Origin: Ilumatobacteraceae bacterium
Lineage (GTDB): Bacteria; Actinomycetota; Acidimicrobiia; Acidimicrobiales; Ilumatobacteraceae
Direction of reading: 5' to 3'
Length of the DNA: 64,000 nt
Assembly: GCA_965279405.1 (NCBI GenBank)
Contig: OZ257157.1
Span: 3,568,865-3,632,864, forward strand
A model generated the notes under the pieces. It was not told the DNA's origin and did not search any database. It was given only the letters and a program-made list of their open reading frames with translations. Every line of letters begins with the position of its first letter. Position 1 is the first letter of the stretch. Below are positions 4,992 through 51,724 of this stretch, piece by piece. A program made the position numbers and the translations under genes.

Positions 4992-5038
4992 CAGGGGCCG
5001 CGTCACCGCAGGTTCGCAGTGGCCCGTCGGGTCAACGA

Positions 5039-5074
5039 GGGAGCCGGTCGCGCTGTCGGGCGCGACCGGCTCCC
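5039..5074. terminator. Hairpin between convergent glnK and the winged-helix gene; likely a bidirectional terminator
   Basis: GGGAGCCGGTCGCGC (5039-5053), a 6-nt loop, then GCGCGACCGGCTCCC (5060-5074). This is a 15-bp perfect stem, followed by CTTGCGTTTC. Confidence 0.6.
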
Positions 5075-5101
5075 TTGCGTTTCAGGACAGGGCGTTCAGG
5101 A

Positions 5102-5620: not shown

Positions 5621-5688
5621 ACGTCGATGGTATGTCCCACGACCGCTGGGAGCGTTTCGGGATTGTTTCGTCGACGTGAAGGGCCTGC

Positions 5689-6729: not shown

Positions 6730-6764
6730 GACGCACGTCGGCCGGGCTCCTACAGTCGTCGGCC

Positions 6765-8144
6765 GTGACAGACGTGTTCGGGACCGACGCCGAGGAGATG
6801 CGTCGGGTGGGATACCGCATCGTCGATGCGGTGGTCGATCACGTCAGCGGCATCGATGCCATCCCCGCGCTCCGCGTCGGCGATCCCGACACGCTCGCCG
6901 ACCTCCTCGGCCGCGGCGAGCCACCGATCGCAGGATCGTCGATCGACGTGGCCATCGAGGTGGTCGTCCGTGAGGTGATGAGCACCATGCAGCACGGTGA
7001 CCATCCCCGCTACTTCGCGCGCGTGCCGGGTCCGTCATCGTTCACCGGGATCGCCGGCGACTGGTTGGCGACCGGCTTCAACGCCATCGCGTCGTCGTGG
7101 GGCGGGGGAGCGGGGCCGAGTGCCGTCGAGCTGGTCGTGCTCGACTGGCTGCGCCAGTGGATGGGCCTGCCGGACGGCACCGAAGGGATCATGCTCAGCG
7201 GCGGATCGATCGCCAACCTGACGGCGCTGTCCGTGGCTCGTGACGCGGTCGGACCCGGCGTCGTCTACTTCAGCGACCAGACGCACAGCTGCGTCCCGAA
7301 GGCGTTGCGCATGCTGCGCGTGCCCTCGGACCACCAGCACCTGATCGACACCGGGACGAAGCTGCGGTTGACGGCAGACGCACTCGTCGGCGCGATCGCC
7401 GCCGATCGTACCGCCGGACGAGTGCCATCGGTGGTGGTGGCAACCGCGGGGAGCACGAACACGGGCGCAGTCGACGAGCTGACCGCGATCGCTGAGATCG
7501 CCGCCGACGAGGGCATGTGGCTGCACGTCGATGGTGCCTACGGCGGCCCGACGCGGCTGACCGAGACCGGTGCCGCCGCGCTGGCCGGCATCGAGCTTGC
7601 GGACTCGTTGGTGATCGATCCGCACAAGTGGCTGTTCCAGCCCTACGACGTCGCCTGCCTCCTCGTCCGCCGGCCGGGCGCCTTGGCGAGCAGCTTCACG
7701 CTGAACCCGGAGTACCTCGCCGACGTGGTCGCCGACGAGGTCGGCGAGATCGACCTGCGCAATCGCGGGCCAGAGCTGACCCGTCGGGCCCGAGCGATCA
7801 AGCTGTGGCTGACGATCGTCACGCACGGCACCGACGCGATCGCGCACCTGGTGCAACGCGGGATCGACCTCGCCGAGCACGCTGAAGGTCTGCTCCGGGG
7901 TGATCCGAGCTGGATCGTCGTCACCGAAGCCGAGCTCGGCATCGTCACCTTCGTTCGGCGCGGCGTCGACGACGAGGGTCACGTGCGCGCTGCTCGGAGC
8001 GTCACCGACGGTGGGTTTGCTGCTGTGACCTGCACCAAGCTGAACGCGCGCCAGGTGCTGCGGCTGTGCACGATCAACCCGCGAACCACCGAATCGGACG
8101 TCGCCGCCACGCTCGCAGCTCTGGCTGCAGCATGTGACGTCTGA
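6765..8144 (+). CDS. Pyridoxal-dependent (group II, aromatic-amino-acid type) decarboxylase
   Basis: HPRYFARVPG, SGGSIANLTAL, LHVDGAYGG and the PLP-lysine motif SLVIDPHKWLFQPYDVACLLVR. Confidence 0.85.
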   Translation: MTDVFGTDAEEMRRVGYRIVDAVVDHVSGIDAIPALRVGDPDTLADLLGRGEPPIAGSSIDVAIEVVVREVMSTMQHGDHPRYFARVPGPSSFTGIAGDWLATGFNAIASSWGGGAGPSAVELVVLDWLRQWMGLPDGTEGIMLSGGSIANLTALSVARDAVGPGVVYFSDQTHSCVPKALRMLRVPSDHQHLIDTGTKLRLTADALVGAIAADRTAGRVPSVVVATAGSTNTGAVDELTAIAEIAADEGMWLHVDGAYGGPTRLTETGAAALAGIELADSLVIDPHKWLFQPYDVACLLVRRPGALASSFTLNPEYLADVVADEVGEIDLRNRGPELTRRARAIKLWLTIVTHGTDAIAHLVQRGIDLAEHAEGLLRGDPSWIVVTEAELGIVTFVRRGVDDEGHVRAARSVTDGGFAAVTCTKLNARQVLRLCTINPRTTESDVAATLAALAAACDV

Positions 8145-8204
8145 ACATCGTCAAGAACGTGTCAAGAGCCTTGTCGCGGGCATCAGGACTGCCGATACCG
8201 AGGC

Positions 8205-9428
8205 ATGCAATCGAGCACGTCCCGCTGGGGCAAGTTGGATCCGATGAGCGGCGACTGGCCGATGGTCTTCGTCGACCTGCTCGTCGTGGTCGGGCTGGCC
8301 GCCCTCGGCCGCTGGGCGGCGACGTTCGGGAGCTCCTCGGTCACCGGGTGGATCATCTTCATCGGCACCGTCGGCGCGCTGGTCATGGGCCTCGTTGCGT
8401 TGCCGCTGCGCATCCTGCTGATGCAGCAGCGCAGCGAGAGCAGCGCGACAACGGAAGCACTGCGCCTGCAGAACGAGCGACAGGACTTCGACGCCCGGCT
8501 CGGCCGCGCGCTGGAGATGACCGACAGCGAGACGGTTGCGTTGACCACGACGGCGCGGGCGCTGTCGATGTGTGGTGACGGCCTCAACGCCTCGATCCTG
8601 CTGGCGGACAACAGCGACGCCCACCTGCAGACCGTCGTGACCACGGCGGGGTGCGCTCCGGAGTCCCTCTGCGAGGTGGCGACGCCGCGCGGCTGTCCCG
8701 CGATCCGCAACGGCCACACCCTGGAGTTCCGGTCCGCCGATCAGCTCGACTGCTGTCCGCACCTGTTCGAGCGGGGCATCGCCGATCTGGCAGCCGTGTG
8801 TGTTCCGGTGAGCGTGGTCGGACGCGCCACCGGCGTGGTCCACGCGGTTCGCGCCGGCCAGCCGTTCGAGCCCGCCGAGCGCAGCCTGATCGAGACGGTC
8901 GCCCACCAGTCGGGCCAGCGCGTCGGCATGTTGCGCGCCACCGCCCAGGCGCAGTTGCAGGCGAGCACCGACCCGCTCACCGGCCTGTACAACCGGCGGA
9001 GCATGGAGAACTCGGTGCGCCAACTGGTGCACGAGCACACTCCGTTCACCGTCAGCATCTGCGACCTCGACCACTTCAAGCACCTGAACGACACCTTCGG
9101 GCACGACACCGGCGACCGGGCGTTGCGACTGTTCGCGCGCACGCTGCGCAACACGGTTCGGGCCAATGACCTCGTCTCCCGCCACGGCGGGGAGGAGTTC
9201 GTGGTCGTGCTGCCGTACGCCGATGTCGAGACGGCGAAGAGCATCCTCGACCGCGTCCGCTTGGAGCTGCTGGCCGCGCTGAGCGACGGGCGCACGCCCG
9301 CGTTCACCGTGTCCGCCGGGATCGCCGACTCGTCGGAGGCCGAGGACTACCAGACGCTCCTTGCACTGGCCGACGAGCGGTTGCTCGAAGCCAAGCGAGC
9401 TGGGCGAGACCGGGTGCTCACGGGCTGA
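8205..9428 (+). CDS. Membrane-anchored diguanylate cyclase (2 TM, Cys-rich GAF-like sensor, GGDEF domain)
   Basis: DPLTGLYNRRSM...ICDLDHFKHLNDTFGHDTGDRALR...SRHGGEEFVVVLP, with a GGEEF active site. The N-terminus has hydrophobic helices. Confidence 0.85.
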   Translation: MQSSTSRWGKLDPMSGDWPMVFVDLLVVVGLAALGRWAATFGSSSVTGWIIFIGTVGALVMGLVALPLRILLMQQRSESSATTEALRLQNERQDFDARLGRALEMTDSETVALTTTARALSMCGDGLNASILLADNSDAHLQTVVTTAGCAPESLCEVATPRGCPAIRNGHTLEFRSADQLDCCPHLFERGIADLAAVCVPVSVVGRATGVVHAVRAGQPFEPAERSLIETVAHQSGQRVGMLRATAQAQLQASTDPLTGLYNRRSMENSVRQLVHEHTPFTVSICDLDHFKHLNDTFGHDTGDRALRLFARTLRNTVRANDLVSRHGGEEFVVVLPYADVETAKSILDRVRLELLAALSDGRTPAFTVSAGIADSSEAEDYQTLLALADERLLEAKRAGRDRVLTG

Positions 9429-9564
9429 CGGCCCGCAGCCCTCCCAGCAGCCACCCCCAGCTGCCGCCCCCAGCTGTAGGGATTCGCGCTGTCAAGCCGT
9501 ACCCTTGAGACGCCGGATTCCCGCCGTGGTGCTCCCTCCGGAAGCGCCAATCCCGACAGATCTC

Positions 9565-10098
9565 ATGAGGTCCGCTTTGAAGTTCAAGAAGGGCGACACC
9601 GTCATCTACCCCCAGCACGGCGCATGCATCGTGCAGGGCACCAAGAAGATGGAAGCGTTTGGGTCCAGCCAGGAGTATCTCATCCTGCGCACCGTGATCA
9701 ACGAGATGACCCTGTCGGTTCCCACGTCGAAGGCCGACGAGGTCGGCGTTCGCCCGCCGGTGAACCCCGACGAGCTCGAGGACCTCGTGTCGGTGCTGTC
9801 CAAGCCCGACCCACGCGTTCCGTCCAACTGGAGCCGCCGGTTCAAGAACCACCAGGAGAAGCTCAAGAGCGGCGACGTGTACCAGGTGGCCGAGGTCGTT
9901 CGAAACCTGGCCGCGCGCAACCGCGACGCGTCGTTGTCGGCCGCCGAGCGCACCATGTACGACCGGGCCCGCATCAACCTGATCAGCGAGATCGCCCCGG
10001 CACTGAAGGTCAGCGCCGAGGAAGCCGAGAAGTACCTCGACGAGGCGCTCGCCCGTGGTGTGCTGAAACCGGCCAAGGAAGTCAAGAAGAAGGCCTGA
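9565..10098 (+). CDS. carD: CarD/CdnL family RNA-polymerase-binding transcription regulator
   Basis: ORF 9361..10098, with the start placed at ATG 9565. MRSALKFKKGDTVIYPQHGACIVQG...SNWSRRFKNHQEKLKSGDVYQVAEVVRNLA. Confidence 0.9.
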   Translation: MRSALKFKKGDTVIYPQHGACIVQGTKKMEAFGSSQEYLILRTVINEMTLSVPTSKADEVGVRPPVNPDELEDLVSVLSKPDPRVPSNWSRRFKNHQEKLKSGDVYQVAEVVRNLAARNRDASLSAAERTMYDRARINLISEIAPALKVSAEEAEKYLDEALARGVLKPAKEVKKKA

Positions 10099-39958: not shown

Positions 39959-41170
39959 TCAGGTCAGGGCGGTGCTCAGGGTGTCCACGATCCGATCGAT
40001 GTGCTCGTCGCTGATCACGAGCGGCGGGCAGAACGTCAACGAATCGGTGTTGATCGCACGCGTGATCACGCCGAGCTCGAGCATCCGGTCACGCACGGCC
40101 ACCGCGTTCTGATCGGTGCGCAGCCCGGCAGCCCACATCGCGCCCTCGCCCCGGGCGTGGTCGATGACACCGTCGGACGCGAGCGCCTGGAGACCGGCAG
40201 CCAGCCGCTCGCCGACGTGCGTGGCCCGCTCCACCAGACCCTCACGGCGGATGATCGCGAGGTTGGCCAAGCCTGCCGCGCAGGCCGCCGGATGGCCGCT
40301 GTAGGTGAACCCGTGGCGCAGGAAGAAGTCGGGATTCGACTCGAGCGCGGCACGCGGCGCCGGGCCGACGAACACGCCGCCGAGCGGCTGGTAGCCGGAC
40401 GTGACCGCCTTCGCGAAGGTGACGAGGTCGGGGCGGACATCGAAGTGATGAGCAGCGAACCATGAGCCGAGACGGCCGTAACCGGTGATCACCTCGTCGA
40501 AGATCAGGTAGGCGCCGTGCTGGTCGCAAAGTCGGCGCAGTCCGGCGAGGTAGCCCTCGGTCGGCGGGAAGATGCCGGCCGCACCCTGCACGGGCTCGGT
40601 GATCACCGCGGCCACCTCGTTGCCGCGCTCGGCCATCAACGAGGCGATGGCTTCGAGATCATCGGCGGAAACCTGCACGACGTCGCCGACGAACGGCCCG
40701 AAGTGCTCGCGGTTCGGGGCGATGCCCTGTGCGCTCGTGCCGCCGTACGCGACACCGTGGTAGCCACGCGTGCGGGAGATGATCAGCGTTCGTTGCGGCT
40801 GCCCGGCTTGCACGTGGGCGACTCGGGCGAGCTTCATCGCCGTGTCGACCGACTCGCTGCCCGACGAGCAGAAGAAGACGCGCGAGTCCTCCATCGGTGC
40901 GATCGTGTGCAGCTCGGCGGCCAGTTGTTCGGCGGGCTCGTTGGTGAACGGGTCGAAGCATGAGTACGCGGCGAGGGTGCTCAGCTGACCGGCGACGGCG
41001 TCGGCGATCTCGGTGCGGCCGTGTCCGACAGCGCAGTACCAGAGGCTGGCCATGCCGTCGACCAGCTCCTGCCCATCGGCAGTGAAGACGAGTGCGCCCT
41101 CGCCACGCACGATGGGGATGAAGGTCTCACGGGTGGGCTTGGCGAAGGGGTGGAGGAACGCACTGGGCAT
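39959..41170 (-). CDS. Class III (omega/acetylornithine-type) PLP aminotransferase
   Basis: This is the C-terminal 403 aa of ORF 39959..42526, starting at ATG 41170. CSSGSESVDTAMK, IFDEVITGYGRLG, and TFAKAVTSGYQPLG with the PLP Lys. Confidence 0.88.
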   Translation of the reverse strand: MPSAFLHPFAKPTRETFIPIVRGEGALVFTADGQELVDGMASLWYCAVGHGRTEIADAVAGQLSTLAAYSCFDPFTNEPAEQLAAELHTIAPMEDSRVFFCSSGSESVDTAMKLARVAHVQAGQPQRTLIISRTRGYHGVAYGGTSAQGIAPNREHFGPFVGDVVQVSADDLEAIASLMAERGNEVAAVITEPVQGAAGIFPPTEGYLAGLRRLCDQHGAYLIFDEVITGYGRLGSWFAAHHFDVRPDLVTFAKAVTSGYQPLGGVFVGPAPRAALESNPDFFLRHGFTYSGHPAACAAGLANLAIIRREGLVERATHVGERLAAGLQALASDGVIDHARGEGAMWAAGLRTDQNAVAVRDRMLELGVITRAINTDSLTFCPPLVISDEHIDRIVDTLSTALT

Positions 41171-41260
41171 GGCGGCGACCGTAGCCGTGGGCCTCGTGCG
41201 TACACTCGCCAGATCGGCACAGACCCAGCGCGGAACGTTCCTGCCAACCAGCCGGCGGCG

Positions 41261-42547
41261 ATGCAGTTCGTCGCCCGGTTCGGTCGCGGGCTGGGACGGT
41301 TGGCGTCCGGCAACGCGACGTCGTCGACGCTCACTCGGTTGCGCTGGTTCCAGGCGTTGTCGGTGGTGCTCGGCCTCGTCCTCGCGCTCGCCGGTGGGTA
41401 CGGCGTCGGGCGTCGGTCGAGCTCGCTGGCCGAGGCGCGGACCGCCGCGCAGCAGCTGATCGCCGTACAGGACGTGCGCGTCGCAGTCGTTCGTGCCGAC
41501 GCCATCGCCAGCTCGTCGTACCTCGTCGGCGGCGAGGAGGACCCCGCCCAGCGCACCGCGTACCTGGCCGAGGTCGACCGCGCCAGCAACGGGATGGTCG
41601 CCGTCGCCAACCGCGTCGGGGGCGCCGACGCCGCGCTGCTGGCCGAAGGCAGCCGCTTGCTCAGCTCGTACGTCGGCCTGGTCGAGCAGGCCCGTGCCAA
41701 CAACCGCCAGGGCTTCCAGGTGGGAGCGGCGTACCAACGGCAGGCCAACGCGATCGTCGTCAACGATCAGATCGGCGACGACGGCACCGCGGTGCCGAAC
41801 ATCGTGGCCACACTCCGCGCCGTCGAGGACTCGCAGCGACGTCAGGTCAACGATCGTCTCGCCGAAGCGCACCGCGCCGGTGCCTGGCTGCAGCTCGTCG
41901 GATGGGTGCTGTTCGGCGTGCTGGCGCTCGGTGCGGTGTGGATGGCCCTTCGCTTCCGGCGGTGGGTCAACGTGCCGGTCGGTCTCGCGGCGCTCGGCGT
42001 GCTGGTGCTGCTCGTCGCCGGCGGCACGGCGCAGAGCGCCGCGGTCAACGACGCCGACACCGCGGTCGACGGGCCACTGCTCCAGGCGGACATCACCGCG
42101 CAAGCGCGTGCCGCTGGCTTCGACGCTCGATCGCAGGAAGCGCTGACGTTGATCAACCGCGGCAGCGGCCAGGCCAACGAGGCGAAGTGGAAGGTCTCGG
42201 CGGCGATCGTCGACGACATCGTCGGTCGATGTGCCTGCGATCCCGATCGCTCGTTCGCCGCCTACGAGGCCGGTCACGACGAGCTGCGCGCGCTGGACGA
42301 CGGCGGCGACTGGGACACCGCAGTCGCGACCAGCTTGGGGCAGGCCGGCACGGTGGCCACCTCGTTCGAGTCGTTCGCCGACGCCACTGCGTCGGTCGTC
42401 GACGACGCATCGCGTCGTGCCGACCAGCAGCTGGTCGATGCGCGGTCGTCGCTCGCGTCCTTGCGGTTGTTCGTCATCGTCGTCGGTCTGCTGGCGGCGG
42501 TGCTCGCCGCGGTCGGCTTCGGGCAACGGATCCGGGAGTACCGATGA
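41261..42547 (+). CDS. glnX: GlnX-like integral membrane protein (4 TM, two extracytoplasmic helical domains)
   Basis: ORF 41021..42547, starting at M81 (41261). The four hydrophobic helices are ALSVVLGLVLALAGGYGV, WLQLVGWVLFGVLALGAVWMAL, VGLAALGVLVLLVAGG and LFVIVVGLLAAVLAAVGF. They are separated by Ala/Gln-rich helical segments. The call rests on topology and position upstream of glnH-pknG. Confidence 0.6.
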   Translation: MQFVARFGRGLGRLASGNATSSTLTRLRWFQALSVVLGLVLALAGGYGVGRRSSSLAEARTAAQQLIAVQDVRVAVVRADAIASSSYLVGGEEDPAQRTAYLAEVDRASNGMVAVANRVGGADAALLAEGSRLLSSYVGLVEQARANNRQGFQVGAAYQRQANAIVVNDQIGDDGTAVPNIVATLRAVEDSQRRQVNDRLAEAHRAGAWLQLVGWVLFGVLALGAVWMALRFRRWVNVPVGLAALGVLVLLVAGGTAQSAAVNDADTAVDGPLLQADITAQARAAGFDARSQEALTLINRGSGQANEAKWKVSAAIVDDIVGRCACDPDRSFAAYEAGHDELRALDDGGDWDTAVATSLGQAGTVATSFESFADATASVVDDASRRADQQLVDARSSLASLRLFVIVVGLLAAVLAAVGFGQRIREYR

Positions 42548-43563
42548 GGCGCCGATCGATCTTCAGCGCAGCACTCGCTGCGGCTGCGATCGTCGTCGTC
42601 ACCGCGTGCTCCGGCGACACGCGACTGCCGGACGCGGTCGAGGTGAGCGTGCCCGTCGAGACGACGCCATCCGTGCCGGCTCCACCGCAGTGCACCGCCG
42701 ATGAAGCGGCGCTGGATCCGACGCGTTCCTACGAGCCGCTCGACGAGCTGCCGGATCCCGGCGACATGCCTTCGGGCTCGACGATGGCGCGCATCCTGCA
42801 GCGCGGCCGGCTCATCGTCGGCGTGTCCGGCGACACCCGCCTGTTCGGTGCCCGCGACTCGAAGACGGGGAACATCGAGGGGTTCGACGTCGACATGCTC
42901 AAGCAGGTCGCGCTGGCGATCTTCGGCGGTGACGAAGCCGACATCAACGACCACATCGAGTACAAGGTGATCACCTACGCACAGCGCCTGCCGGCGCTGG
43001 AGGCGGGGCCGGACAACGGTGGCGTCGACATCGTCGCCCACACGATGACCATCAATTGCAACCGCTGGCTGCGCATCGGCTTCTCGTCCGAGTACTACCA
43101 CGCCGGTCAGAAGGTGCTCGTGAAGGCGGGCTCCGGCTACGAGTCGGTTGGTGACCTCGTTGCGGCGAAGGCGCGCGTGTGCGCACCGCTCGGCAGCACC
43201 AACATCGACGAGATCAACAAGCCCGAGTACGCCGGCATCACCGTGATCGGCAAGCCCGACATCACCGACTGCCTCGTCGCCATGCAGCAAGGTCAGGCCG
43301 ATGCGACCACAGGTGATGACACCGTGCTCGCCGGCTTCGCTGCGCAGGATCCGAACGTCCTGGTCGTCGGTGGTGCCTTCACCGGCGAGCCGTACGGCCT
43401 CGGCATCGGCAAGGACAACGTCGACTTCGTCCGCTTCGTCAACGCCGTGCTCGAGCAGGTCCGCGAGGACGGACGTTGGGAGCGCATCTACGACACGTGG
43501 CTGACGTCCAGCCTCGGTCCGTCGAACGGTCCGCCGACGGCGCTGTACGGGCGGGAGCCGTGA
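42544..43563 (+). CDS. glnH: GlnH-like amino-acid-binding lipoprotein (SBP family 3)
   Basis: ORF 41902..43563. ATG 42544 overlaps the glnX stop as ATGA. Lipobox MRRRSIFSAALAAAAIVVVTAC. GRLIVGVSGDTRLFG...GFDVDMLKQVA...DIVAHTMTI...GEPYGLGIGKDN. Confidence 0.8.
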   Translation: MRRRSIFSAALAAAAIVVVTACSGDTRLPDAVEVSVPVETTPSVPAPPQCTADEAALDPTRSYEPLDELPDPGDMPSGSTMARILQRGRLIVGVSGDTRLFGARDSKTGNIEGFDVDMLKQVALAIFGGDEADINDHIEYKVITYAQRLPALEAGPDNGGVDIVAHTMTINCNRWLRIGFSSEYYHAGQKVLVKAGSGYESVGDLVAAKARVCAPLGSTNIDEINKPEYAGITVIGKPDITDCLVAMQQGQADATTGDDTVLAGFAAQDPNVLVVGGAFTGEPYGLGIGKDNVDFVRFVNAVLEQVREDGRWERIYDTWLTSSLGPSNGPPTALYGREP

Positions 43564-44642
43564 TGACGGCGAGCGTTCCCACGATCGACGAGGTTCGTCA
43601 CTGGATCACGCAGTGGCGCGAGTGGCTCAGCGTGCGCACGGACGCGCTGCTGTCGCTCGACGAACGGGCGCGCGACCTCGGCAACGACGGCGATCGCGCT
43701 GATGTCGCTGCAGCGTTCGTCGTGCACAAGGCCCTGTCGAACCGGATCATCGACATCGAGACGGCGGCTGGCCGCGGCGATCGCGCCGCCGCCGGCCAGC
43801 GTGCCGGCTCAGCACTCGTCGACGAGCTCGGTGGTGCCGTTGCCGCGTCGCCCGACGAAGCGGCCACCCTGCTCGACGCGATCGTCGACCGCGTCTCCAC
43901 ACGTCTCGACGGGATCGAGCGGACTGCGGCCGCCGAGATCCGCGCCGCGCAGGCGGTGCAGGTGGAGCTCGACGCCGCCGAGCGGTTGAGCACGACCCTC
44001 GGCATGCAGGCCAACCGGCTCGCGGCGATCCGCACGCAGCTGGCGACGAGGCGCGACCTCGGCTCGCTCGCGGCCGAAGCGGCCACGGTTCGCGCCGAGC
44101 TCGAAGCGGCCAGTCGCCGACGCAACGAGTTGCTCACTGCGATCGAGCAGGCACCCGAGCGGTTGGCGGGCATGGCGAACGACGAGGCATCGCTGCGCGA
44201 GCTCGCAGCGCGATGCCGCGAGAAGATCAAGCAGGCGCCGCCGTTGGCGGTGCCCAACGTCGGCGCGATCCAGCTCGATCACGACCGAGCTGCACTCGAG
44301 GCGATGCCGTGGTCGCCGGCACGTGCGATCGTCGAGCCGCTGCTGCAGCGCATCGACCGCCTGCAGGCAGCGCTGGCGGAAGCCCGGCGTCGTTTCCAGG
44401 CGCCGCTCGACGAACGCGACGAGCTGCGTGGCCTGCTGCAGGCGTTCCGTGACAAGGCGGGTGGCAGCGGCAAGGCCGAGGCCGCCGACGTGGACAGCGC
44501 CTACCGCCAGGCGCAGGACGTGCTGTGGAACGCGCCGTGCGACCTCGACGCCGGTCGACGGCTGACCCACGAGTTCATCGCGCTGGTCAACCGCGTCGTC
44601 GGAACGGGTACGGCTGCACCGGGGAAGGGGCAGGCATCGTGA
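43563..44642 (+). CDS. Hypothetical Ala/Arg/Leu/Glu-rich helical (coiled-coil-like) protein
   Basis: ORF 43476..44642. ATG 43563 overlaps the glnH TGA. The stop overlaps the pknG GTG. It reads MTASVPTIDEVRHWITQWREWLSV... with long heptad-like stretches. I recognise no catalytic motif. Confidence 0.55.
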   Translation: MTASVPTIDEVRHWITQWREWLSVRTDALLSLDERARDLGNDGDRADVAAAFVVHKALSNRIIDIETAAGRGDRAAAGQRAGSALVDELGGAVAASPDEAATLLDAIVDRVSTRLDGIERTAAAEIRAAQAVQVELDAAERLSTTLGMQANRLAAIRTQLATRRDLGSLAAEAATVRAELEAASRRRNELLTAIEQAPERLAGMANDEASLRELAARCREKIKQAPPLAVPNVGAIQLDHDRAALEAMPWSPARAIVEPLLQRIDRLQAALAEARRRFQAPLDERDELRGLLQAFRDKAGGSGKAEAADVDSAYRQAQDVLWNAPCDLDAGRRLTHEFIALVNRVVGTGTAAPGKGQAS

Positions 44643-46888
44643 AGTGCACGCAACCCGGATGCACGGGCAACATCGTCGACGGCTACTGCGACGTCTGCGG
44701 CATGGCCGCCGCGTCGGGGGCCGTCACGCCATCGCCGACGTCGGCCGTGAGGCCGACTCCCAACCCGGGTACGGCCGGAACGTCGCCGCCTTCGATCGGC
44801 TTCACCGGATCCACTCGCCTCGGACTCGTGCCGATCGGCTCGGCGCGCAACAGCGGCAGCACGCGGCCCACCCGTCGGCTCGGCGGCGCGACGCAGGCGA
44901 CACGGCTCGGTGCCGGGCTCACCCAGGTGCCGTCGATCCCGATCGTCGATCCGCGCCAAGCGCTGATGAACCCGGCGGTCGTCGCCGAGGACAAGCGCTT
45001 CTGCTCGGTGTGCGAGACACCGATCGGTCGCACCCGCGACGGCCAGCCCGGCCGCACCAAGGGCTTCTGTCCGAAGTGCCGCACGCCGTTCGACTTCGAG
45101 CCGAAGCTCGCTCCCGGCGCGCTGGTCGGCGGTCAGTACGAGGTGGTCGGCTGCCTGGCGCACGGCGGCATGGGCTGGATCTACCTCGCCCGCGACCGCA
45201 ACGTCAACGATCGCTGGGTGGTGCTCAAGGGCCTCCTGAACACCGGCGATCCCGACGCGTCGCGTGCCGCCGTTGCCGAGAAGCAGTACCTCGCCGAGGT
45301 GGAGCACCCGCTGATCGTCGAGATCTACAACTTCGTCACCGCGCCCGACGGTGCGTCGTACATCGTCATGGAGTACGTCGGCGGGCGCTCGCTGAACAAC
45401 CTCCTGAAAGACCGGATGGCGGCCACCTCCGGACGCTTCTCGCCGATCCCCGTCGATCAGGCGATCGCCTACATGGTCGAGATCCTGCCGGCGTTCTCCT
45501 ACCTGCACGGCCTCGGGTTGCTGTACTGCGACTTCAAGCCGGCCAACCTCATCCAGGTCGGTGACGGCCTGAAGCTGATCGACCTCGGCGGCGTACGGCG
45601 CGTCGACGACGACCAGTCGCCGATCTACGGCACCGTCGGCTTCCAGGCGCCCGAGGTGCCGAGCGAAGGCACCACGGTGGCGAGCGACGTGTACACGATC
45701 GCGCGCACGCTGGCCGTGCTGGTGTTCGAGTTCAAGGGCTACCAGAACCGCTTCGTCGACTCGCTGCCCGGCCCGGACGACGTGCCGTTGTTCGGCGAGC
45801 ACGACTCGCTCTACCGCTGGTTGCTGAAGGGCACCGCGCCGCGTCCGGAGGACCGGTTCCAGACCGCCGACGAGATGCGCGACCAGTTGCTCGGCGTGCT
45901 GCGCGAGGTCACCTCGCTGACCGCGGCCGGAGGTGGTCGCCGCGGCGTCACTCGCAGCACGCCGTCGCGGCTGTTCGAGACGCCGGCCGTCGCCGGAGAT
46001 CAGCTCTCGTGGTCGGACCTGCCCGGCGTCATCGTCGACGAATCCGATGCGATGGCATCCTGGCTCTCGTCGGTCACCGCCGACGACGCAGCGGTGCGGC
46101 TCGCCGCACTGCGCGGTGCGCCGGAGGAGACCGTGGGTGTGCTGCTGGCCACGGGCATGGCAGCTCTGGCGACGGGTGACGCGGAGCAGGCCGAGGCCGC
46201 GTCGCAGCGCATCCTCGCCCGCGATGCGTGGGAGTGGCGCGGCGCGTGGCTGCACGGGCTGATCGCGTTGGCGACCGACCAGCACACCGAAGCGGTGTCT
46301 GCCTTCAACGCCGTCTACGGGCAGCTGCCCGGCGAGCTCGCCCCGAAGCTGGCACTGGCGCGGTCGTGCGAGCTCGGCGACGAGCCGGCAGTGGCCGAGC
46401 GCATGTACGGACTCTGCGCGCGAACGGATGCCGCGTACGTCGCGCCCGCGCAGTTCGGGCTGGCCCGTCTTGCCGCGGCCGGCACTCGCCGCGACGATGC
46501 GCTTGCCGCGCTCGACCGCATCCCTGCCACGAGCCGTGCGTACGGCGATGCGCGCCGGCAGCGAGCGGTGCTGCTGGCGTCGGCGCTCGATCCGCAGCAC
46601 GCCCTCGACGACCTCAGCGCTGCTGCCGCCGAGCTCGATCGCGCGGGCATGGAACCACTCGCTCGCGCCGAGCTGCGCGTGCAGATCCTGTCCTCGTCGC
46701 TGCAGTGGGTGCTGCGCAACGGTCCGTACGCCGGGCTCAGCATCGGCGGCGTCCCCGCCGTCGAAGGACCGTTGCGGTCGGGGCTCGAGAGCGCCTATCG
46801 CGAGGCGGCTCGACTGACCGCTGGCCACGCCGAGCGCATCGCGCTCGTCGATCAGGCCAACGCGGTGAGGCCGCGCACGTTCGTCTGA
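44639..46888 (+). CDS. pknG: PknG-type Ser/Thr protein kinase (N-terminal zinc ribbon, Thr/Pro-rich linker, rubredoxin-like CxxC pair, kinase domain, TPR)
   Basis: ORF 44525..46888, with GTG 44639 overlapping the upstream stop. FCSVCETPIGRTRDGQPGRTKGFCPKCRTPFDF lies directly before GQYEVVGCLAHGGMGWIYLARDRNVNDRWVVLKGL. Kinase motifs: LLYCDFKPANL, LIDLGG and GTVGFQAPE. The C-terminus is made of TPR-like helices. Confidence 0.88.
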   Translation: MKCTQPGCTGNIVDGYCDVCGMAAASGAVTPSPTSAVRPTPNPGTAGTSPPSIGFTGSTRLGLVPIGSARNSGSTRPTRRLGGATQATRLGAGLTQVPSIPIVDPRQALMNPAVVAEDKRFCSVCETPIGRTRDGQPGRTKGFCPKCRTPFDFEPKLAPGALVGGQYEVVGCLAHGGMGWIYLARDRNVNDRWVVLKGLLNTGDPDASRAAVAEKQYLAEVEHPLIVEIYNFVTAPDGASYIVMEYVGGRSLNNLLKDRMAATSGRFSPIPVDQAIAYMVEILPAFSYLHGLGLLYCDFKPANLIQVGDGLKLIDLGGVRRVDDDQSPIYGTVGFQAPEVPSEGTTVASDVYTIARTLAVLVFEFKGYQNRFVDSLPGPDDVPLFGEHDSLYRWLLKGTAPRPEDRFQTADEMRDQLLGVLREVTSLTAAGGGRRGVTRSTPSRLFETPAVAGDQLSWSDLPGVIVDESDAMASWLSSVTADDAAVRLAALRGAPEETVGVLLATGMAALATGDAEQAEAASQRILARDAWEWRGAWLHGLIALATDQHTEAVSAFNAVYGQLPGELAPKLALARSCELGDEPAVAERMYGLCARTDAAYVAPAQFGLARLAAAGTRRDDALAALDRIPATSRAYGDARRQRAVLLASALDPQHALDDLSAAAAELDRAGMEPLARAELRVQILSSSLQWVLRNGPYAGLSIGGVPAVEGPLRSGLESAYREAARLTAGHAERIALVDQANAVRPRTFV

Positions 46889-47940
46889 TGTCGTCTGCAC
46901 CGGAAGTCAACGACACCACGTGCCCGTCGTGCGGCGCGTCGATCACCGCCGCCGACTCTTTCTGTGAAGCGTGCGGAGCCACGCTCGGCCCACCCGGCGC
47001 GACGCCTCCACCGCCACCCGTCGCGGCGTCGGCTCCAGGCAACGGCACTGGCGGCGGGCGTGCCTGTCGAGCGTGTGGAGGTCGGATCCTCGACGACGGG
47101 TTCTGCGGTTCGTGCGGTCAGAAGGCGCCGACCGAGCGCGACCACTGGGACGAGCAGCCGGCGCCGTGGGTGGCCGGCGTGTGCGACCGCGGCATCGTCC
47201 ACGCCCGCAACGAGGACGCGATGGCGCTCGCCGCCACTGCCGACCGCGCGTTCGCAGTGCTGGTCGTGTGCGACGGCGTGACCTCGGCGCCGGACAGCGA
47301 TCGAGCCAGCCTTGCTGCGTCGCGTCGTGCGTGTGCCGACCTCGTCGGCGCGGCCCGGCCCGAAGGTGGCGAAGCGGTGCGCGTGGCCCACTGGGCCGCT
47401 GCGGTGCAGCACAGCGCGGTGGTCGCCAACGAGGTCGCCGTCGGCGTGGCGCACGCGCTGGGCGATCCACCGGAACCGCCGTCGAGCACGTTCGTCGTCG
47501 GGGTGCTCGCCGATGACCTCCTCACCGTTGGCTGGTGCGGCGACTCACGGGCCTACTGGTTGCCGGATGCAGGGGAGGGCGTGCAGCTGACCACCGATCA
47601 CTCGCTCGGCACGGAGATGATCCGCGCCGGACGGTCGCGTGCGGAAGCAGAGGCCGACCCGACGTGCCACACCATCACCCGCTGGCTCGGTGCCGACTCG
47701 GTCTCACCAGACGCCGAGGTCGTCTCACGACGCCTCGATGCGCCCGGCTGGGTGCTCGTCTGCAGCGATGGCATGTGGAACGACTTCTCCGAACCCGCTG
47801 CGCTGCGCGGCCTGATCGACGCGGTGGGGGCCGGCGACCCGCTCGTCATCGCTGATGCGATGGTGCGCGCCGCCAACGATCGTGGCGGGCACGACAACAT
47901 CACCGCGGCCCTGGCTCGCTTCGAGCCATCGCTACGCTGA
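46888..47940 (+). CDS. PP2C-family Ser/Thr phosphatase with two N-terminal zinc ribbons
   Basis: ORF 46228..47940, with ATG 46888 overlapping the pknG TGA. CPSCGASITAADSFCEACG and CRACGGRILDDGFCGSCG. PP2C motifs: HARNEDA, VVCDGVTS, VCSDGMWN and GGHDNITA. Confidence 0.85.
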   Translation: MSSAPEVNDTTCPSCGASITAADSFCEACGATLGPPGATPPPPPVAASAPGNGTGGGRACRACGGRILDDGFCGSCGQKAPTERDHWDEQPAPWVAGVCDRGIVHARNEDAMALAATADRAFAVLVVCDGVTSAPDSDRASLAASRRACADLVGAARPEGGEAVRVAHWAAAVQHSAVVANEVAVGVAHALGDPPEPPSSTFVVGVLADDLLTVGWCGDSRAYWLPDAGEGVQLTTDHSLGTEMIRAGRSRAEAEADPTCHTITRWLGADSVSPDAEVVSRRLDAPGWVLVCSDGMWNDFSEPAALRGLIDAVGAGDPLVIADAMVRAANDRGGHDNITAALARFEPSLR

Positions 47941-47975
47941 CCCAACGACGAGCCGAACAGACAGAGGAGGTCGAC

Positions 47976-49259
47976 TTGGCCGAGTTCACGGCGTCCGTGT
48001 TCCAGAACGAGTACCTGTCGGAGAACGCCACCGACGTGCACGCGGTCGTCTCCGTCGCCTGCACCGGTGCCGGCCTCGCCGGCCAGGCGGGAACGGGCGA
48101 CGCTGCCGAGATCCTGATCGTCGACACGTCCGGCTCGATGGACATGCCGCCGACCAAGATCGCCAACGCTCGCCGCGCGGCGAAGGTGGCGATCGACGAG
48201 ATCGTCGACGGCACGTGGTTCGCCGTGCTCAGCGGGCACTCGGTCGCGCAGATGGTGTACCCGACGCATCCCGGCCTGGCGAAGATGAGCGCCGTCACCC
48301 GACGCGAGGCGTCGCACATGGTCGAGCGCCTGCGCAGCGGCGGGAGCACCGCGATCGGGGCGTGGATCTCGGCCGCCACCGAGCTGTTCCAGCAGGCACC
48401 GACGTCGCAGCACCACGCCATCTTGCTGACCGACGGTCGCATCGAGGGCGAACCTCCCGAAGCGCTGCCCGCGGCACTGGCCGCGGCTCGTGGCGTGTTC
48501 CAGTGCGACTGCCGTGGCGTGGGTGAGGACTGGGAGGTCGACGAGCTGCGCTCGATCGCCGACGCACTGCTCGGCACCGTCGACATCATCGCCGACCCGG
48601 CCGACATGGAGGCCGACTTCGAGACGATGATGCGCACCGCGATGCAACGCGGCGTGGCCGAAGCGCGCCTGCGGATCTGGGCGCCACAGGGCAGCGAGGT
48701 GCTGTTCGTGCGCCAGGTCGCACCCGCAGTCGAAGACCTCAGCTCCAAGGCGCAGCAGACCGCACCGCTCGTGCGTGAGTACTCGACCGGGGCGTGGAGC
48801 GACGAGAGCCGCGACTACCACGTCGCCGTGCGCGTGCCCGTGGCTCCCGTCGGCAGTGAACGGTTGGCGGCCCGCGTCGAAGTCGTCGTCAACGACGAGG
48901 TGCAGGCGAAGGCGCTGATCCGTGGCGTGTGGAGCACGGACGCCAACCTGACGACCCGCATCGACCCCGCAGTGGCCCACTACACCGGGCAGGTGCAGCT
49001 GGCCGACGTCATCCAACGCGGCCTCGCGGCGAAGGCCGCCGGCGACGAGCGCACCGCGACGGTCCTGCTCGGCGAGGCGGCGAAGATCGCTCACGAGGGC
49101 GGCAACGAGGACACCACCCGGCTGCTGTCGAAGGTCGTCGACGTGGTCGATGCCGAGGCGGGCACGGTGCGGTTGAAGGCCCAGGTGCAGCGCAGCGACG
49201 AGATGGCGCTGGATACGCGCAGCACGAAGACGACGCGGATCAGGCCGACCGCGCCATGA
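47976..49259 (+). CDS. von Willebrand factor type A (vWA) domain protein
   Basis: TTG start at 47976, with GAGGAGG 6 nt upstream. MIDAS motif ILIVDTSGSMD. GGSTAIGAW and AILLTDGR. The C-terminal about 200 aa are uncharacterised. Confidence 0.85.
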   Translation: MAEFTASVFQNEYLSENATDVHAVVSVACTGAGLAGQAGTGDAAEILIVDTSGSMDMPPTKIANARRAAKVAIDEIVDGTWFAVLSGHSVAQMVYPTHPGLAKMSAVTRREASHMVERLRSGGSTAIGAWISAATELFQQAPTSQHHAILLTDGRIEGEPPEALPAALAAARGVFQCDCRGVGEDWEVDELRSIADALLGTVDIIADPADMEADFETMMRTAMQRGVAEARLRIWAPQGSEVLFVRQVAPAVEDLSSKAQQTAPLVREYSTGAWSDESRDYHVAVRVPVAPVGSERLAARVEVVVNDEVQAKALIRGVWSTDANLTTRIDPAVAHYTGQVQLADVIQRGLAAKAAGDERTATVLLGEAAKIAHEGGNEDTTRLLSKVVDVVDAEAGTVRLKAQVQRSDEMALDTRSTKTTRIRPTAP

Positions 49260-49942
49260 CCGTCCTGTGCCCGAACGGACACGACTCCACTGACCCGGAG
49301 TGGTGCGACACCTGTGGCGCTCGCATCGGCGAACCGGCGCCTGCGCCGGCCACGCCTGCAGCACCGGCAGCCGTGACGCAGCCGCCGGCGAGCTCGGCGC
49401 CCTCGGTGCCCTGCCCGAACTGCAGCACCCCGAACGCAGCCGACAACCTGTTCTGCGAGGAGTGCGGCTACGACTTCACGACCGGCGAGGCGCCACCTGT
49501 GCCGGCGCCGGTCGAGCCGGTTGCCGAGCCGGCCCCGGTCGGCAGCGCGGCGTGGGTGGTCGTGGTCGAGATCGATCCGGCGTGGTACGCGCTGAAGGGC
49601 ACGCTGGCCGATCAGCCGTGCCCGAAGCCGTCCACCTTCACCGTCGCCGTCAGTGGCCGCACCGCGCTGATCGGGCGAACGAGCCAGTCGCGTGGCGTTC
49701 GTCCCGAGGTGGCGCTGGACAACGACACGGGCGTGTCCCGACGGCACGCGCAGCTGGTCCGCGACGACGACCAGCTCAGCGTGGTCGACCTGTCATCGAC
49801 CAACGGCACCTACGTCGTGGTCGCCGGCTCGACGCCGAGCGAGGACACCGATGCCATCACCCCGGGCGTCCCGGTGGTGCTGCGCGATGGCGATGCCGTC
49901 TACGTCGGCGCCTGGACCCGCCTCACCGCCCGCGCCGGCTGA
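49256..49942 (+). CDS. FHA domain protein with two N-terminal zinc ribbons
   Basis: ORF 48929..49942, with ATG 49256 overlapping the vWA stop as ATGA. CPNGHDSTDPEWCDTCG and CPNCSTPNAADNLFCEECG. FHA motifs: LIGRTSQ, GVSRRHAQL and DLSSTNGTYV. Confidence 0.85.
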   Translation: MTVLCPNGHDSTDPEWCDTCGARIGEPAPAPATPAAPAAVTQPPASSAPSVPCPNCSTPNAADNLFCEECGYDFTTGEAPPVPAPVEPVAEPAPVGSAAWVVVVEIDPAWYALKGTLADQPCPKPSTFTVAVSGRTALIGRTSQSRGVRPEVALDNDTGVSRRHAQLVRDDDQLSVVDLSSTNGTYVVVAGSTPSEDTDAITPGVPVVLRDGDAVYVGAWTRLTARAG

Positions 49943-49998: not shown

Positions 49999-51567
49999 AT
50001 GGGTCCGACGGGGGCACGAATTCAACGCTTGCCGTGGCGGCGCGTCCTCGTCGCGGTGATCGCCCCGATCGCCCTGTCGCTCGCCGTGCAGAGCGGTCAC
50101 CGCGCTGACGCCTCGGTTCCGCAGTCGCTGTTCTCCTCCGCCGTCAGCGCGCTGAACACCTCCAGCGGCTGCACCGGATCGGGAGTGGCCTCGGCGGGCA
50201 TCCGCACGGCCGTCGACGCGCTGGACGACCCGTGGCGAGCCGCGGCAACTGCCGCTGGGTTCACCACCATCTCGATGCTCGACACCGCCGGGGCACCGAC
50301 CGGCAACGCCAACCCCTTCGTGCTCGGCGTGCCGTCCACGGCGATCACCGTCGGCGTGTCGCTGCGCAACGTGCCGATGAGCGACGTCCCGGCCTACGGA
50401 GGCGGCGGCGCCGGGGTTGGTGCGTTGGCCGTGGCCAACAGCAACGGCCCGTCGATCCGAGTGAGCACCGATCGAACGCTGCAGGAGTGCGCGCCCTACC
50501 CGGCGTCGCTGTACGGCACGTCGATCGCCACCCAGACGCGGGCGTGGCAGGAGAACGCCGGTGACGGCAGCACGTTGAACGGCGTCCTGTTCCAGTTCTC
50601 CACGCCCGTGCGTGCGTTCGGCGCCTGGTTCGGCGACCTCGAGTCTCGGCCGGGCACCGGAGGCAACGGCGGGCAGGGCACGCCGGCCTGGTTCAAGGTG
50701 ATCGGAACCTCCGGCCAGGTGCTGTCACAAGGGCCGGTGCCGGTCGACGAGGGCGCGGCGCCGACGAACGCCCAGTGCGGCGGCTCCGACGCCGAGGCCG
50801 ATGGTCTCGGCTGCGGGAACCAGTCGACGCGCTGGCTCGGCTGGTTGGCCGATGCCGACGACCCGATCGCCGCCATCCTGGTGGTGGTCGGCGACGACGA
50901 CGCCTGCACGCAGGCGGCCGCGTCGCAGTGCGACGGCTCCACCGAGCACCTTGCCTGGGTCGGCGCGTCCGTCGGCCTCACCGCCACTGGCGACCCCAAC
51001 CCCACCACCACCACGTCGACCACGTCGACCACGTCGACCACGTCGACCACGACGACTGAGCCCTCGACCACGACGACGACCGAGCCGTCGACCACGACCA
51101 CGACCGAGCCGTCGACCACGACCACGACCGAGCCGTCGACCACGACCACGACGACCGAGCCGTCGACCACGACCACGACCGAGCCGTCGACCACGACGAC
51201 GACCGAGCCGTCGACGACGACCACGACTGAGCCGTCGACCACGACCACGACTGAGCCGTCGACGACGACCACGACTGAGCCGTCGACCACGACCGATCCG
51301 TCGACGACGTCATCGACGATCGCGGTCGAGCCGCCGACGGGCTCGACGACGACCTCGTCGTCCACCACCACCTCGACCTCGACCTCGACCTCGACGACGT
51401 CGTCGACGACGACGACGTGGTCGGGCGCGGGCGGAGGGATGCTTCCGACGACCGGCAACGATCCGGACGGGTTGCTCGAGTGGGCGCTGGTCGTGAGCGG
51501 CTTCGGGGCGATTGCTGTCGTGCTCGGCCGTCGATCGACTGCCCGGCCGCCGAAGCGGAGGGTGTGA
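49999..51567 (+). CDS. LPXTG cell-wall-anchored surface protein with a Thr/Pro/Ser-rich repeat stalk
   Basis: Signal peptide MGPTGARIQRLPWRRVLVAVIAPIALSLAVQSGHRADA. The C-terminus is LPTTG plus a hydrophobic helix (WALVVSGFGAIAVVLG) plus an RRSTARPPKRR tail. Confidence 0.8.
   Translation: MGPTGARIQRLPWRRVLVAVIAPIALSLAVQSGHRADASVPQSLFSSAVSALNTSSGCTGSGVASAGIRTAVDALDDPWRAAATAAGFTTISMLDTAGAPTGNANPFVLGVPSTAITVGVSLRNVPMSDVPAYGGGGAGVGALAVANSNGPSIRVSTDRTLQECAPYPASLYGTSIATQTRAWQENAGDGSTLNGVLFQFSTPVRAFGAWFGDLESRPGTGGNGGQGTPAWFKVIGTSGQVLSQGPVPVDEGAAPTNAQCGGSDAEADGLGCGNQSTRWLGWLADADDPIAAILVVVGDDDACTQAAASQCDGSTEHLAWVGASVGLTATGDPNPTTTTSTTSTTSTTSTTTTEPSTTTTTEPSTTTTTEPSTTTTTEPSTTTTTTEPSTTTTTEPSTTTTTEPSTTTTTEPSTTTTTEPSTTTTTEPSTTTDPSTTSSTIAVEPPTGSTTTSSSTTTSTSTSTSTTSSTTTTWSGAGGGMLPTTGNDPDGLLEWALVVSGFGAIAVVLGRRSTARPPKRRV
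51007..51300 (+). repeat. In-frame coding tandem repeats: 9-nt ACCACGTCG x4, then about 10 copies of a 24-nt unit (one 27-nt variant)
   Basis: The protein reads TTSTTSTTSTTS followed by (EPSTTTTT)n. The first GAG of the EPS units is at 51058 by residue count (E354). The units are GAGCCGTCGACCACGACCACGACC with synonymous variants. Confidence 0.9.
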
Positions 51568-51575
51568 CGCTCACC

Positions 51576-51724
51576 CGGGTGGGCTTCAAAGCCTCCGCTG
51601 GGTTGGGGTGGAGGGTTTCGGGCGCGTGCGGGTGGGCTTCAAAGCCTCCACTGGGTTGGGGCGGAGGGTTTCGGGCGCGTGCGGGTGGACTTCAGACCCT
51701 CCGCGGCGGTGGCGGGAGGGTGGT
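51576..51724. repeat. Intergenic 53-nt tandem repeat, 2 near-identical units plus a diverged third; each unit carries a hairpin
   Basis: U1 (51576-51628) and U2 (51629-51681) read CGGGTGGGCTTCAAAGCCTCC[G/A]CTGGGTTGGGG[T/C]GGAGGGTTTCGGGCGCGTG and are 51/53 identical. U3 starts at 51682, is diverged, and runs into the stop of the convergent M23 gene. The internal stems are GCCTCC...GGAGGG in U1/U2 and ACCCTCC...GGAGGGT in U3. Confidence 0.85.

Follow-up and report, generated by a model that had tools for sequence, protein, structure and literature searches.

A conserved seven-gene operon of actinobacteria places PknG beside a PP2C phosphatase and an ArnA/ArnB-like vWA/FHA pair

The window analysed here is a stretch of 64,000 nucleotides from an Ilumatobacteraceae bacterium (GCA_965279405.1, contig OZ257157.1, forward-strand positions 3,568,865 to 3,632,864) with a G+C content of ∼69%, and all positions below are those of the window. 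Between 41261 and 49942 it carries seven plus-strand genes in the order glnX, glnH, a gene for a helical protein, pknG, and genes for a PP2C-type protein phosphatase, a von Willebrand factor A (vWA) protein, and an FHA protein (g1-g7). Together these genes probably constitute one conserved signalling operon centred on PknG, in which GlnH and GlnX would sense amino acids, PknG would write phosphorylation, the PP2C would erase it, and the last two products would form a switch resembling archaeal ArnA/ArnB, with the vWA protein as hub. The cassette is well supported as a conserved genomic unit, whereas its mechanism is hypothetical. An earlier reading made from the letters alone, here called the sequence-only reading, had interpreted the seven genes as a self-contained cassette of sensor, kinase, eraser, reader, and vWA protein, an interpretation now supported by the identity of the kinase and by synteny.

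The 749-aa kinase (g4, 44639-46888) is best read as a true PknG, given its three PknG Pfam domains, its matches to solved structures, and its linkage to glnX and glnH. It consists of an N-terminal zinc ribbon, conserved linker motifs, a rubredoxin domain (PknG_rubred, PF16919, E 5.2e-24, residues 86-157, with CSVC at 122 and CPKC at 144), a kinase domain (Pkinase, E 1.1e-26) whose catalytic motifs VVLK, CDFKPAN, DLG (as DLGG), and APE are intact, and a C-terminal TPR domain (PknG_TPR, PF16918, E 7.4e-54, residues 461-747). Its match to Mycobacterium tuberculosis PknG (2pzi) has an E of 8.7e-129 over residues 89-747 and that to Corynebacterium glutamicum PknG (7mxb) an E of 1.4e-87, compared with only ∼1.5e-19 for PknB, which bears out the PknG-type assignment made from the letters.

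The first gene (41261-42547) encodes a 428-aa transmembrane transducer of the GlnX family, which matches the NCBIfam GlnX model NF058618 with an E of 7.1e-63 (residues 23-428 on model positions 3-413; 213.2 bits against a cut-off of 250) and has no match in the Pfam library used. Its orthologues in the related loci L001, L002, L003, L084, and L086 carry PF28326 (Sensor_actino) in precomputed annotation, the one in L001 being 92% identical. A simple hydropathy scan finds hydrophobic segments at residues 27-51, 206-232, 234-262, and 394-424, that is, four transmembrane segments and two extracytoplasmic regions arranged as in GlnX. The second gene (42544-43563) encodes a 339-aa GlnH-type solute-binding lipoprotein (SBP_bac_3, E 1.8e-21) with a signal peptide and the lipobox VVTAC. 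Its top solved match is M. tuberculosis GlnH (6h2t, E 5.5e-56; next binding protein 3.3e-42), with which the motifs TM[ST]I.C..R and DDT align. By homology, this lipoprotein is the periplasmic orthologue of the M. tuberculosis sensor for Asp/Glu, and it and GlnX would feed the cytoplasmic PknG as in the three-gene pathway.

Homology also shows that the genes downstream of pknG encode a dedicated PP2C, a protein with the tripartite fold of ArnB, and a protein with the zinc-ribbon-plus-FHA architecture of ArnA. The 350-aa phosphatase (g5, 46888-47940) matches PP2C_2 (E 6e-12), the zinc-ribbon model DZR (E 7e-8), and the Stp1/IreP-type PP2C model of NCBIfam (E 9e-28); its PP2C motifs RNED, DGV, DGMW, and DN are intact, and the two N-terminal CxxC...CxxC ribbons accompany the PP2C in 69 of 80 homologues. 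The 427-aa vWA protein (g6, 47976-49259) combines a vWA domain with a beta-sandwich and an ArnB_C/VWA_3_C domain, with matches to VWA_3 and VWA_3_C (PF18571, E 1e-20) as well as to VWA_2 and VWA. [quoted passage not shown] The 228-aa FHA protein (g7, 49256-49942) has two zinc ribbons, the first of them detected in 66 of 78 homologues, followed by an FHA domain (FHA, E 6.9e-11; DZR, E 1.6e-6) in which the phosphothreonine-binding elements GR, SRRH, and NGT are present. Searches of domain libraries thus agree with every motif-based product assignment of the sequence-only reading.

The vWA protein is 47% identical over its full length to PDB 4FX5 (E 2e-109), and its AlphaFold2 model, with a predicted local distance difference test score (pLDDT) of 87.8, ranks in Foldseek first with 4fx5 (TM 0.92), then with the ArnAB complex 8s05 (E 1.8e-21) and an ArnB paralogue, 5a8j (E 9e-19), and then with Sec23/24. 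ArnB, from the archaeon Sulfolobus acidocaldarius, joins its vWA domain to a split beta-sandwich and to a helical domain at the C-terminus, ArnB_C (PMC6509490; PMC12852372), which is the same domain as VWA_3_C (PMC12852372). The same three parts are seen in the cassette protein, and in both cases the adjoining gene encodes a zinc-finger or zinc-ribbon FHA protein; sequence identity between the two vWA proteins is only ∼14-15%, whereas the fold match is direct. In the archaeal system, a loose unphosphorylated state in which the ArnA zinc finger is docked on the beta-sandwich and C-terminal domain of ArnB becomes a tight complex when ArnC phosphorylates the ArnB C-terminal domain and the ArnA FHA domain is recruited; the switch tracks nutrient availability, its driving enzymes being Ser/Thr kinases and a phosphatase (PMC6509490; PMC12852372). 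Judging by sequence and model comparisons, this ArnB/ArnA switch, rather than the TerY-P triad invoked by the sequence-only reading, appears to be the closest analogue of the vWA/FHA pair. The cassette differs from it in uniting a kinase, a phosphatase, and an extracellular sensor in one operon, in using a PP2C instead of a PP2A, in giving its FHA protein two ribbons, and in placing zinc ribbons on its kinase and phosphatase too. The title of PDB 8S05 calls ArnAB the archaeal orthologue of the Sec23/24 core, and since the vWA protein has structural matches to COPII Sec23/Sec24 after those to ArnB, the cassette may be a bacterial member of that fold lineage.

The structure 4FX5 is that of Caci_2163 of Catenulispora acidiphila, a structural-genomics vWA protein homologous to g6 throughout. 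It was deposited without functional context, and the ArnAB papers refer to it solely as a structural orthologue, with no account of its genomic setting (PMC6509490; PMC12852372). In Catenulispora subtropica, a close relative of Caci_2163 is encoded within a cassette of the same seven genes.

Two features set the cassette proteins apart and bear on how they could work together. The first is the zinc ribbon common to all three soluble signalling proteins, PknG, the PP2C, and the FHA protein. In PknG it occupies residues 3-21 (44645-44701; CTQPGCTGNIVDGYCDVCG), and the consensus C.QPGC.G...DGYC[DN]VCG was found in 63 of 69 full-length PknG calls from related loci; among the six misses, at least four look like start-call truncations and two have unrelated N-terminal sequence. 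To our knowledge, M. tuberculosis PknG has no zinc ribbon and no cysteine ahead of its rubredoxin domain. The PknG linker is conserved at residues 57-98 in the motifs S.RL.S.PLGSAR, SRPTRRLG, and RLGAGLT.VP, the last of which is the counterpart of a motif that, in published work on PknG, connects the N-terminus with the TPR domain. A docking site for the FHA protein had been suggested by the sequence-only reading in the Thr/Pro-rich part of the linker, but those residues (∼30-52) are poorly conserved, and conservation lies instead in the ribbon and the 57-98 motifs. In two related loci, L036 (Kribbella koreensis) and L069 (Microlunatus ginsengisoli), the ribbon appears duplicated at the start of the pknG homologue (∼6340-6900), as two C.QPGC.G...DGYCDVCG units with a low-complexity linker between them.

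The second feature is the C-terminal tail of the vWA protein (residues 396-423, 49161-49244), which is near-invariant and follows the pattern GTVRLK...DEMALDT.STKT[TS]R[IV][RK]. Its core D[TAV].STK[TS] is present in 82 of 82 homologues, mostly 4-9 residues from the C-terminus, and residues S416, K418, T419, and R421 are invariant in alignment A3. Many FHA domains prefer pTxx[ILV], and the tail offers a threonine with Ile/Val at +3, which fits this preference; judged on its sequence, the tail is a candidate phospho-acceptor and FHA ligand. The FHA protein has a conserved element of its own, CExCG-YDFTTG, into which its second ribbon runs (residues 66-78; 63 of 78 homologues). The two threonines of this element may accept the phosphate in an intramolecular, GarA-type FHA switch.

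The third gene (g3, 43563-44642), between glnH and pknG, encodes a cytoplasmic all-helical protein of 359 aa. It matches no family in Pfam, NCBIfam, or PADLOC, and its AlphaFold2 model, built of long helices at a pLDDT of 95.3, has no match in the PDB with E below 1 by Foldseek. A likeness of 95 residues to the helical lid of DnaK was the sole hint of that search, again with no E below 1, and no function was assigned on it. A profile search found homologues in 1491 representative clusters (50% identity) at E≤1e-3, mostly stand-alone proteins of 330-430 aa; with no named family or fold, g3 thus belongs to a large, fast-evolving, unnamed family. Its homologues come from Ilumatobacteraceae and other Acidimicrobiia, and its position is kept in most related loci. 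The heading of the sequence-only reading implied that pknG precedes this gene, but the actual order is glnH, helical gene, pknG, as in that reading's own text.

Direct translation confirmed that all seven frames, of 428, 339, 359, 749, 350, 427, and 228 aa for g1 to g7, are open from start to stop. Successive genes overlap at ATGA (42544-42547, g1/g2), TGATG (43561-43565, g2/g3), GTGA (44639-44642, g3/g4), TGATG (46886-46890, pknG/PP2C), and ATGA (49256-49259, vWA/FHA). The sole intergenic gap within the operon, 35 nt between g5 and g6 (47941-47975), holds a Shine-Dalgarno-like GAGGAGG (47964-47970, plus strand, read from the sequence) 5 nt upstream of the TTG start of g6 at 47976, a start supported by the product of identical length (427 aa) called independently in L001. 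These genes, junction strings, gap, ribosome-binding motif, and TTG start had all been given exactly by the sequence-only reading. The codon-position G+C of g1-g7, 0.81-0.91 at position 3 and 0.48-0.61 at position 2, is the reason for taking these frames as coding in preference to long opposite-strand shadow open reading frames (ORFs); the minus-strand ORFs at 44501-46900 and 47598-49364 lack the coding pattern.

The operon promoter is presumed to lie in the ∼90-nt intergenic region (41171-41260) between glnX and a divergent aminotransferase gene, and it is only inferred, because a consensus scan found no sigma-70-type consensus upstream of glnX. A consensus scan for terminators within the operon was no richer than chance, and with the TGATG overlap of pknG and the PP2C gene it gives no sign of transcripts ending between these two. 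Folding at the junctions gave no signal exceeding that of shuffled sequences; the promoter, terminator, and folding results are all uninformative for a high-GC actinobacterium.

Conservation of the cassette was examined in a synteny scan that took one genome from each GTDB species and used a vWA-protein alignment as query. The scan yielded more than 560 relatives, of which the 80 best were sampled with 10-kb flanks and searched by tblastn with g1-g7. Sixty-five of these vWA-anchored loci had enough flank, and all seven genes were collinear in 52 of them; nine more lacked only a detectable g3, with glnH-pknG spacing still above 1 kb in those checked. The helical, PP2C, vWA, and FHA genes are therefore syntenic with pknG, which was the gene-neighbourhood question left by the sequence-only reading. 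Median spacing across loci is -4 nt at the glnX/glnH, g3/pknG, pknG/PP2C (73 loci), and vWA/FHA junctions, and the vWA-FHA pairing is kept in ∼80 loci. In three loci whose g3 is 84%, 44%, and 39% identical to that of the window, the seven-gene order is the same and the flanking genes differ; such variation of the flanks indicates that the conserved unit is the cassette itself, and the recurrence of the order, with mostly 4-nt overlaps, in dozens of distant genomes makes the cassette more than chance.

Carriers of the cassette include Ilumatobacteraceae and other Acidimicrobiia, Pseudonocardiales, metagenome-assembled genomes of Mycobacteriales, Jatrophihabitantaceae, Kineosporia (Kineosporiales), Propionibacteriales (Kribbella, Microlunatus), and Micrococcales (Cellulomonas, Cellulosimicrobium, Oerskovia, Terrabacter, Agreia). 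Pfam-annotated gene calls made independently also give the seven-gene order in Catenulispora subtropica and Actinocrinis, and in Actinophytocola oryzae they show pknG-PP2C-vWA-FHA at the end of a contig. The seven-gene arrangement is thus widespread across actinobacteria and not a lineage-specific fusion, and it is probably an old actinobacterial form. Identity of the vWA protein is ∼75-81% within Ilumatobacteraceae and 54-61% between classes, a divergence that tracks taxonomy and fits vertical inheritance. Two deposited names sit oddly with their sequences: locus L012, deposited as 'uncultured Bifidobacterium sp.', has an Ilumatobacteraceae-like cassette with a vWA protein 78% identical to that of the window, and locus L073, deposited as 'Streptomyces sp. 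SID13031', has identities to the window resembling those of Kribbella loci; either may be mislabelled or misbinned.

The best-known relative of the cassette is the glnX-glnH-pknG operon of Mycobacterium and Corynebacterium, in which an orthologous sensor lipoprotein, four-transmembrane transducer, and kinase occur in the same relative order (PMC6069109; PMC8546545). The PknG of these genera likewise has rubredoxin and TPR domains and a RLG.GL..[IV]P motif ahead of the rubredoxin domain, while its N-terminal domain has been termed 'variable' (PMC6069109); cassette PknG differs in the added N-terminal zinc ribbon. A July 2026 preprint defines the GlnH/GlnX/PknG pathway as three genes plus GarA and describes it as 'widely conserved in the Corynebacteriales', and a 2018 mBio paper reported conservation for the three-gene operon only. 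Relative to that operon, the cassette adds four co-oriented, mostly overlapping genes, for the helical, PP2C, vWA, and zinc-ribbon-FHA proteins, and it encodes no GarA/OdhI-type substrate; a tblastn search of the 64-kb window with an approximate GarA sequence matched only the FHA domain of g7. The three-gene operon looks like a reduced form of the seven-gene cassette. A bolder and distinctly tentative proposal is that the original output of GlnH/GlnX/PknG was an ArnA/ArnB-type vWA/FHA switch on a ribbon-docking vWA hub, fold-homologous to the archaeal switch and the Sec23/24 core, with the GarA-only pathway as the derived, reduced state.

The mechanism envisaged for the operon follows from these likenesses. 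Amino-acid sensing would render PknG active and lead to phosphorylation of threonines, most likely those in the STKT[TS]R[VI] tail of the vWA protein, with the kinase's own conserved N-terminal motifs as possible further targets. Binding of the resulting phosphothreonine by the FHA domain of g7 would convert a loose, ribbon-tethered vWA/FHA complex into a tight one in the manner of ArnA/ArnB, and the PP2C would reset the switch. Similar zinc ribbons open PknG, the PP2C, and the FHA protein, and for this reason the vWA protein is probably a hub, on which writer, eraser, and reader may dock at a site equivalent to that of the ArnA zinc finger on ArnB. The helical protein, translationally coupled to pknG, would probably be an adaptor that links either GlnX with the PknG TPR domain or PknG with the hub, and the output could be transcription, metabolism, or control of the GarA/OdhI type in parallel.

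Several points weigh against this interpretation. Every step beyond the orthology of GlnH, GlnX, and PknG is inferred from sequence. GarA/OdhI is reported to co-occur with pknG across Actinobacteria (PMC8546545) and may stay the main output. The match of g7 to ArnA is weak (5a8i, E 1.8e-5; 8s05_C, E 4e-5) and barely ahead of GarA/OdhI (∼2e-4), so the common architecture is no proof of orthology, and the phosphosites of ArnB lie in its helical bundle, whereas the candidate phosphosite of the cassette is in a C-terminal tail. Anchored on the vWA protein, the scan shows that this vWA family is nearly always beside pknG, and not what share of pknG genes has the extension; gene starts in the related loci are heuristic calls. 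Four loci also deviate from the common order. In L062, a 5-kb insertion of four minus-strand genes (5034-9959) separates the PP2C and vWA genes; L070 (Oerskovia rustica) has PP2C-vWA-FHA and no detectable glnX-pknG upstream of 8995, although Oerskovia douganii (L079) has all seven genes; and in L028 and L047, glnX and glnH gave no tblastn matches.

Some of these points are what would be expected if the transcript carried two separate modules, with GlnX-GlnH-(g3)-PknG acting on GarA/OdhI and PP2C-vWA-FHA forming an ArnAB-like switch served by other kinases. Three genes suffice in Mycobacterium and Corynebacterium, GarA/OdhI reportedly accompanies pknG throughout Actinobacteria (PMC8546545), the Arn kinases of Sulfolobus are not named with the arnA-arnB gene pair (PMC6509490; PMC12852372), L062 tolerates its insertion between the PP2C and vWA genes, and L070 has the last three genes with no pknG detected ahead of them. 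Such an arrangement is nevertheless unlikely, as the start and stop codons of pknG and the PP2C gene overlap in the window and at the median of the 73 loci, their adjacency is kept across two classes despite varying flanks, and PknG shares an N-terminal ribbon with the PP2C and the FHA protein, which would be puzzling for a kinase outside the assembly.

A likewise unlikely alternative makes g7 the local equivalent of GarA/OdhI, a PknG substrate that would inhibit 2-oxoglutarate dehydrogenase or glutamate enzymes, with the PP2C and vWA proteins only tuning it. Known PknG substrates are FHA proteins, the FHA domain of g7 is 35-40% identical to the approximate GarA sequence by tblastn in addition to its sequence matches to solved GarA and OdhI, and the TT pair of YDFTTG, ahead of the FHA domain, bears a loose resemblance to GarA's ETTS site. 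However, g7 scores only 31.9 bits against a cut-off of 200 with the OdhI equivalog model NF041660, has no N-terminal ETTS motif, has ArnA as its top solved match, and is translationally coupled to an ArnB-like partner. It also has two zinc ribbons; we know of none in GarA.

The TerY-P triad, to which the sequence-only reading had likened the kinase, PP2C, and vWA genes, consists of a TerY-like vWA protein, a PP2C, and a Ser/Thr kinase that has a zinc ribbon fused at its C-terminus; a phosphorylation-dependent switch has been proposed for the triad (PMC11090510). The cassette likewise co-encodes vWA, PP2C, and kinase with zinc-ribbon elements, but only the PP2C agrees with the definition of the triad: the vWA protein is ArnB-like and matches no TerY or defence vWA model in NCBIfam or PADLOC, three of the proteins carry ribbons, at their N-termini, the kinase has the PknG TPR domain at its C-terminus, and the operon adds an FHA reader and a periplasmic sensor and shows no defence-system signature. 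That the downstream genes are a stress or anti-phage module of the TerY-P kind, with PknG as its kinase by chance, is therefore very improbable, the resemblance to the triad (PMC11090510) and the kinase's matches to generic defence-kinase models of PADLOC being outweighed by the confinement of those matches to the generic catalytic domain, the absence of PADLOC matches for the vWA, FHA, and helical proteins, the ArnB_C domain, the N-terminal placement of the ribbons, and a divergence that tracks taxonomy, a vertically inherited housekeeping pattern and not that of a defence island. The PADLOC scan itself returned only generic kinase matches and one weak PP2C match, and the defence reading was rejected.

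A further parallel in gene content is DRA0331-DRA0334 of Deinococcus radiodurans, which comprises a vWA protein, a transmembrane Ser/Thr protein kinase, an FHA protein, and an FHA-PP2C, and has been called a self-contained phosphorylation unit (bioRxiv 10.64898/2026.01.23.701218). The four functional classes are united in one operon in both systems, with the vWA and FHA likeness being one of class alone, but the Deinococcus kinase is transmembrane, its phosphatase carries an FHA domain instead of ribbons, and it has no GlnH/GlnX sensor.

In the open-access literature and bioRxiv (subscription-only literature was not covered), no description was found of pknG with a vWA or von Willebrand cassette, or of ArnA/ArnB linked to actinobacterial PknG. 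The view of the sequence-only reading that this architecture is uncharacterised agrees with that search, whereas its picture of a fused architecture gives way to that of a widespread actinobacterial form. What is new here is the presence of ribbons on PknG, the PP2C, and the FHA protein and the near-invariant vWA tail, which together suggest a vWA hub docking writer, eraser, and reader. PknG is among the best-studied bacterial Ser/Thr kinases, as a virulence factor in tuberculosis and for its part in glutamate production. Should the seven-gene form be both common and the older of the two, the pathway would include a phosphatase of its own, a further FHA reader, and a vWA hub, all lost from model organisms, and views on how PknG signals end and what they act on would change. 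The orphan crystal structure 4FX5 would acquire a functional context, and the ArnA/ArnB switch would acquire a bacterial counterpart with candidate sensor, kinase, and phosphatase, the mechanism of which is directly testable. The ribbon on every partner also provides a falsifiable hypothesis for the co-localization of writer, eraser, and reader.

Upstream of the cassette, and divergent from glnX, lies a class-III aminotransferase gene on the minus strand (39962-41170; Aminotran_3, E 1e-95). It is paired with glnX in 13 Ilumatobacteraceae/Acidimicrobiales loci, 40-120 nt before glnX each time, and not in other classes. As it is conserved only within Acidimicrobiales loci, it was rejected as a functional partner of the cassette; the pairing could reflect a local regulatory link to amino-acid metabolism or plain local synteny. 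Three long minus-strand ORFs, 39959-42526 (855 aa), 44501-46900 (799 aa), and 47598-49364 (588 aa), overlap real genes. By codon-position G+C, the latter two and the glnX-overlapping part of the first are high-GC artefacts, and the first has the real aminotransferase gene as its 3′ part; such shadow ORFs could mislead ORF-based annotation.

Downstream, between the cassette and an M23 peptidase gene, lies a plus-strand gene (49999-51567) for a secreted Thr/Pro-repeat protein. The product has a signal peptide, tandem repeats of TTEPSTTT type (∼11 copies; 24-27-nt period in the DNA), a C-terminal LPTTG, a hydrophobic anchor, and a basic tail; from its sequence, it looks like a sortase-anchored protein. 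It was excluded as an eighth member of the operon, being a secreted repeat protein that is missing from the close relative L001. An opposite-strand ORF at 50496-51458 is a shadow of its repeats. Directly after the gene, an intergenic 53-nt tandem repeat spans 51576-51694 in 2.2 copies with 95% identity.

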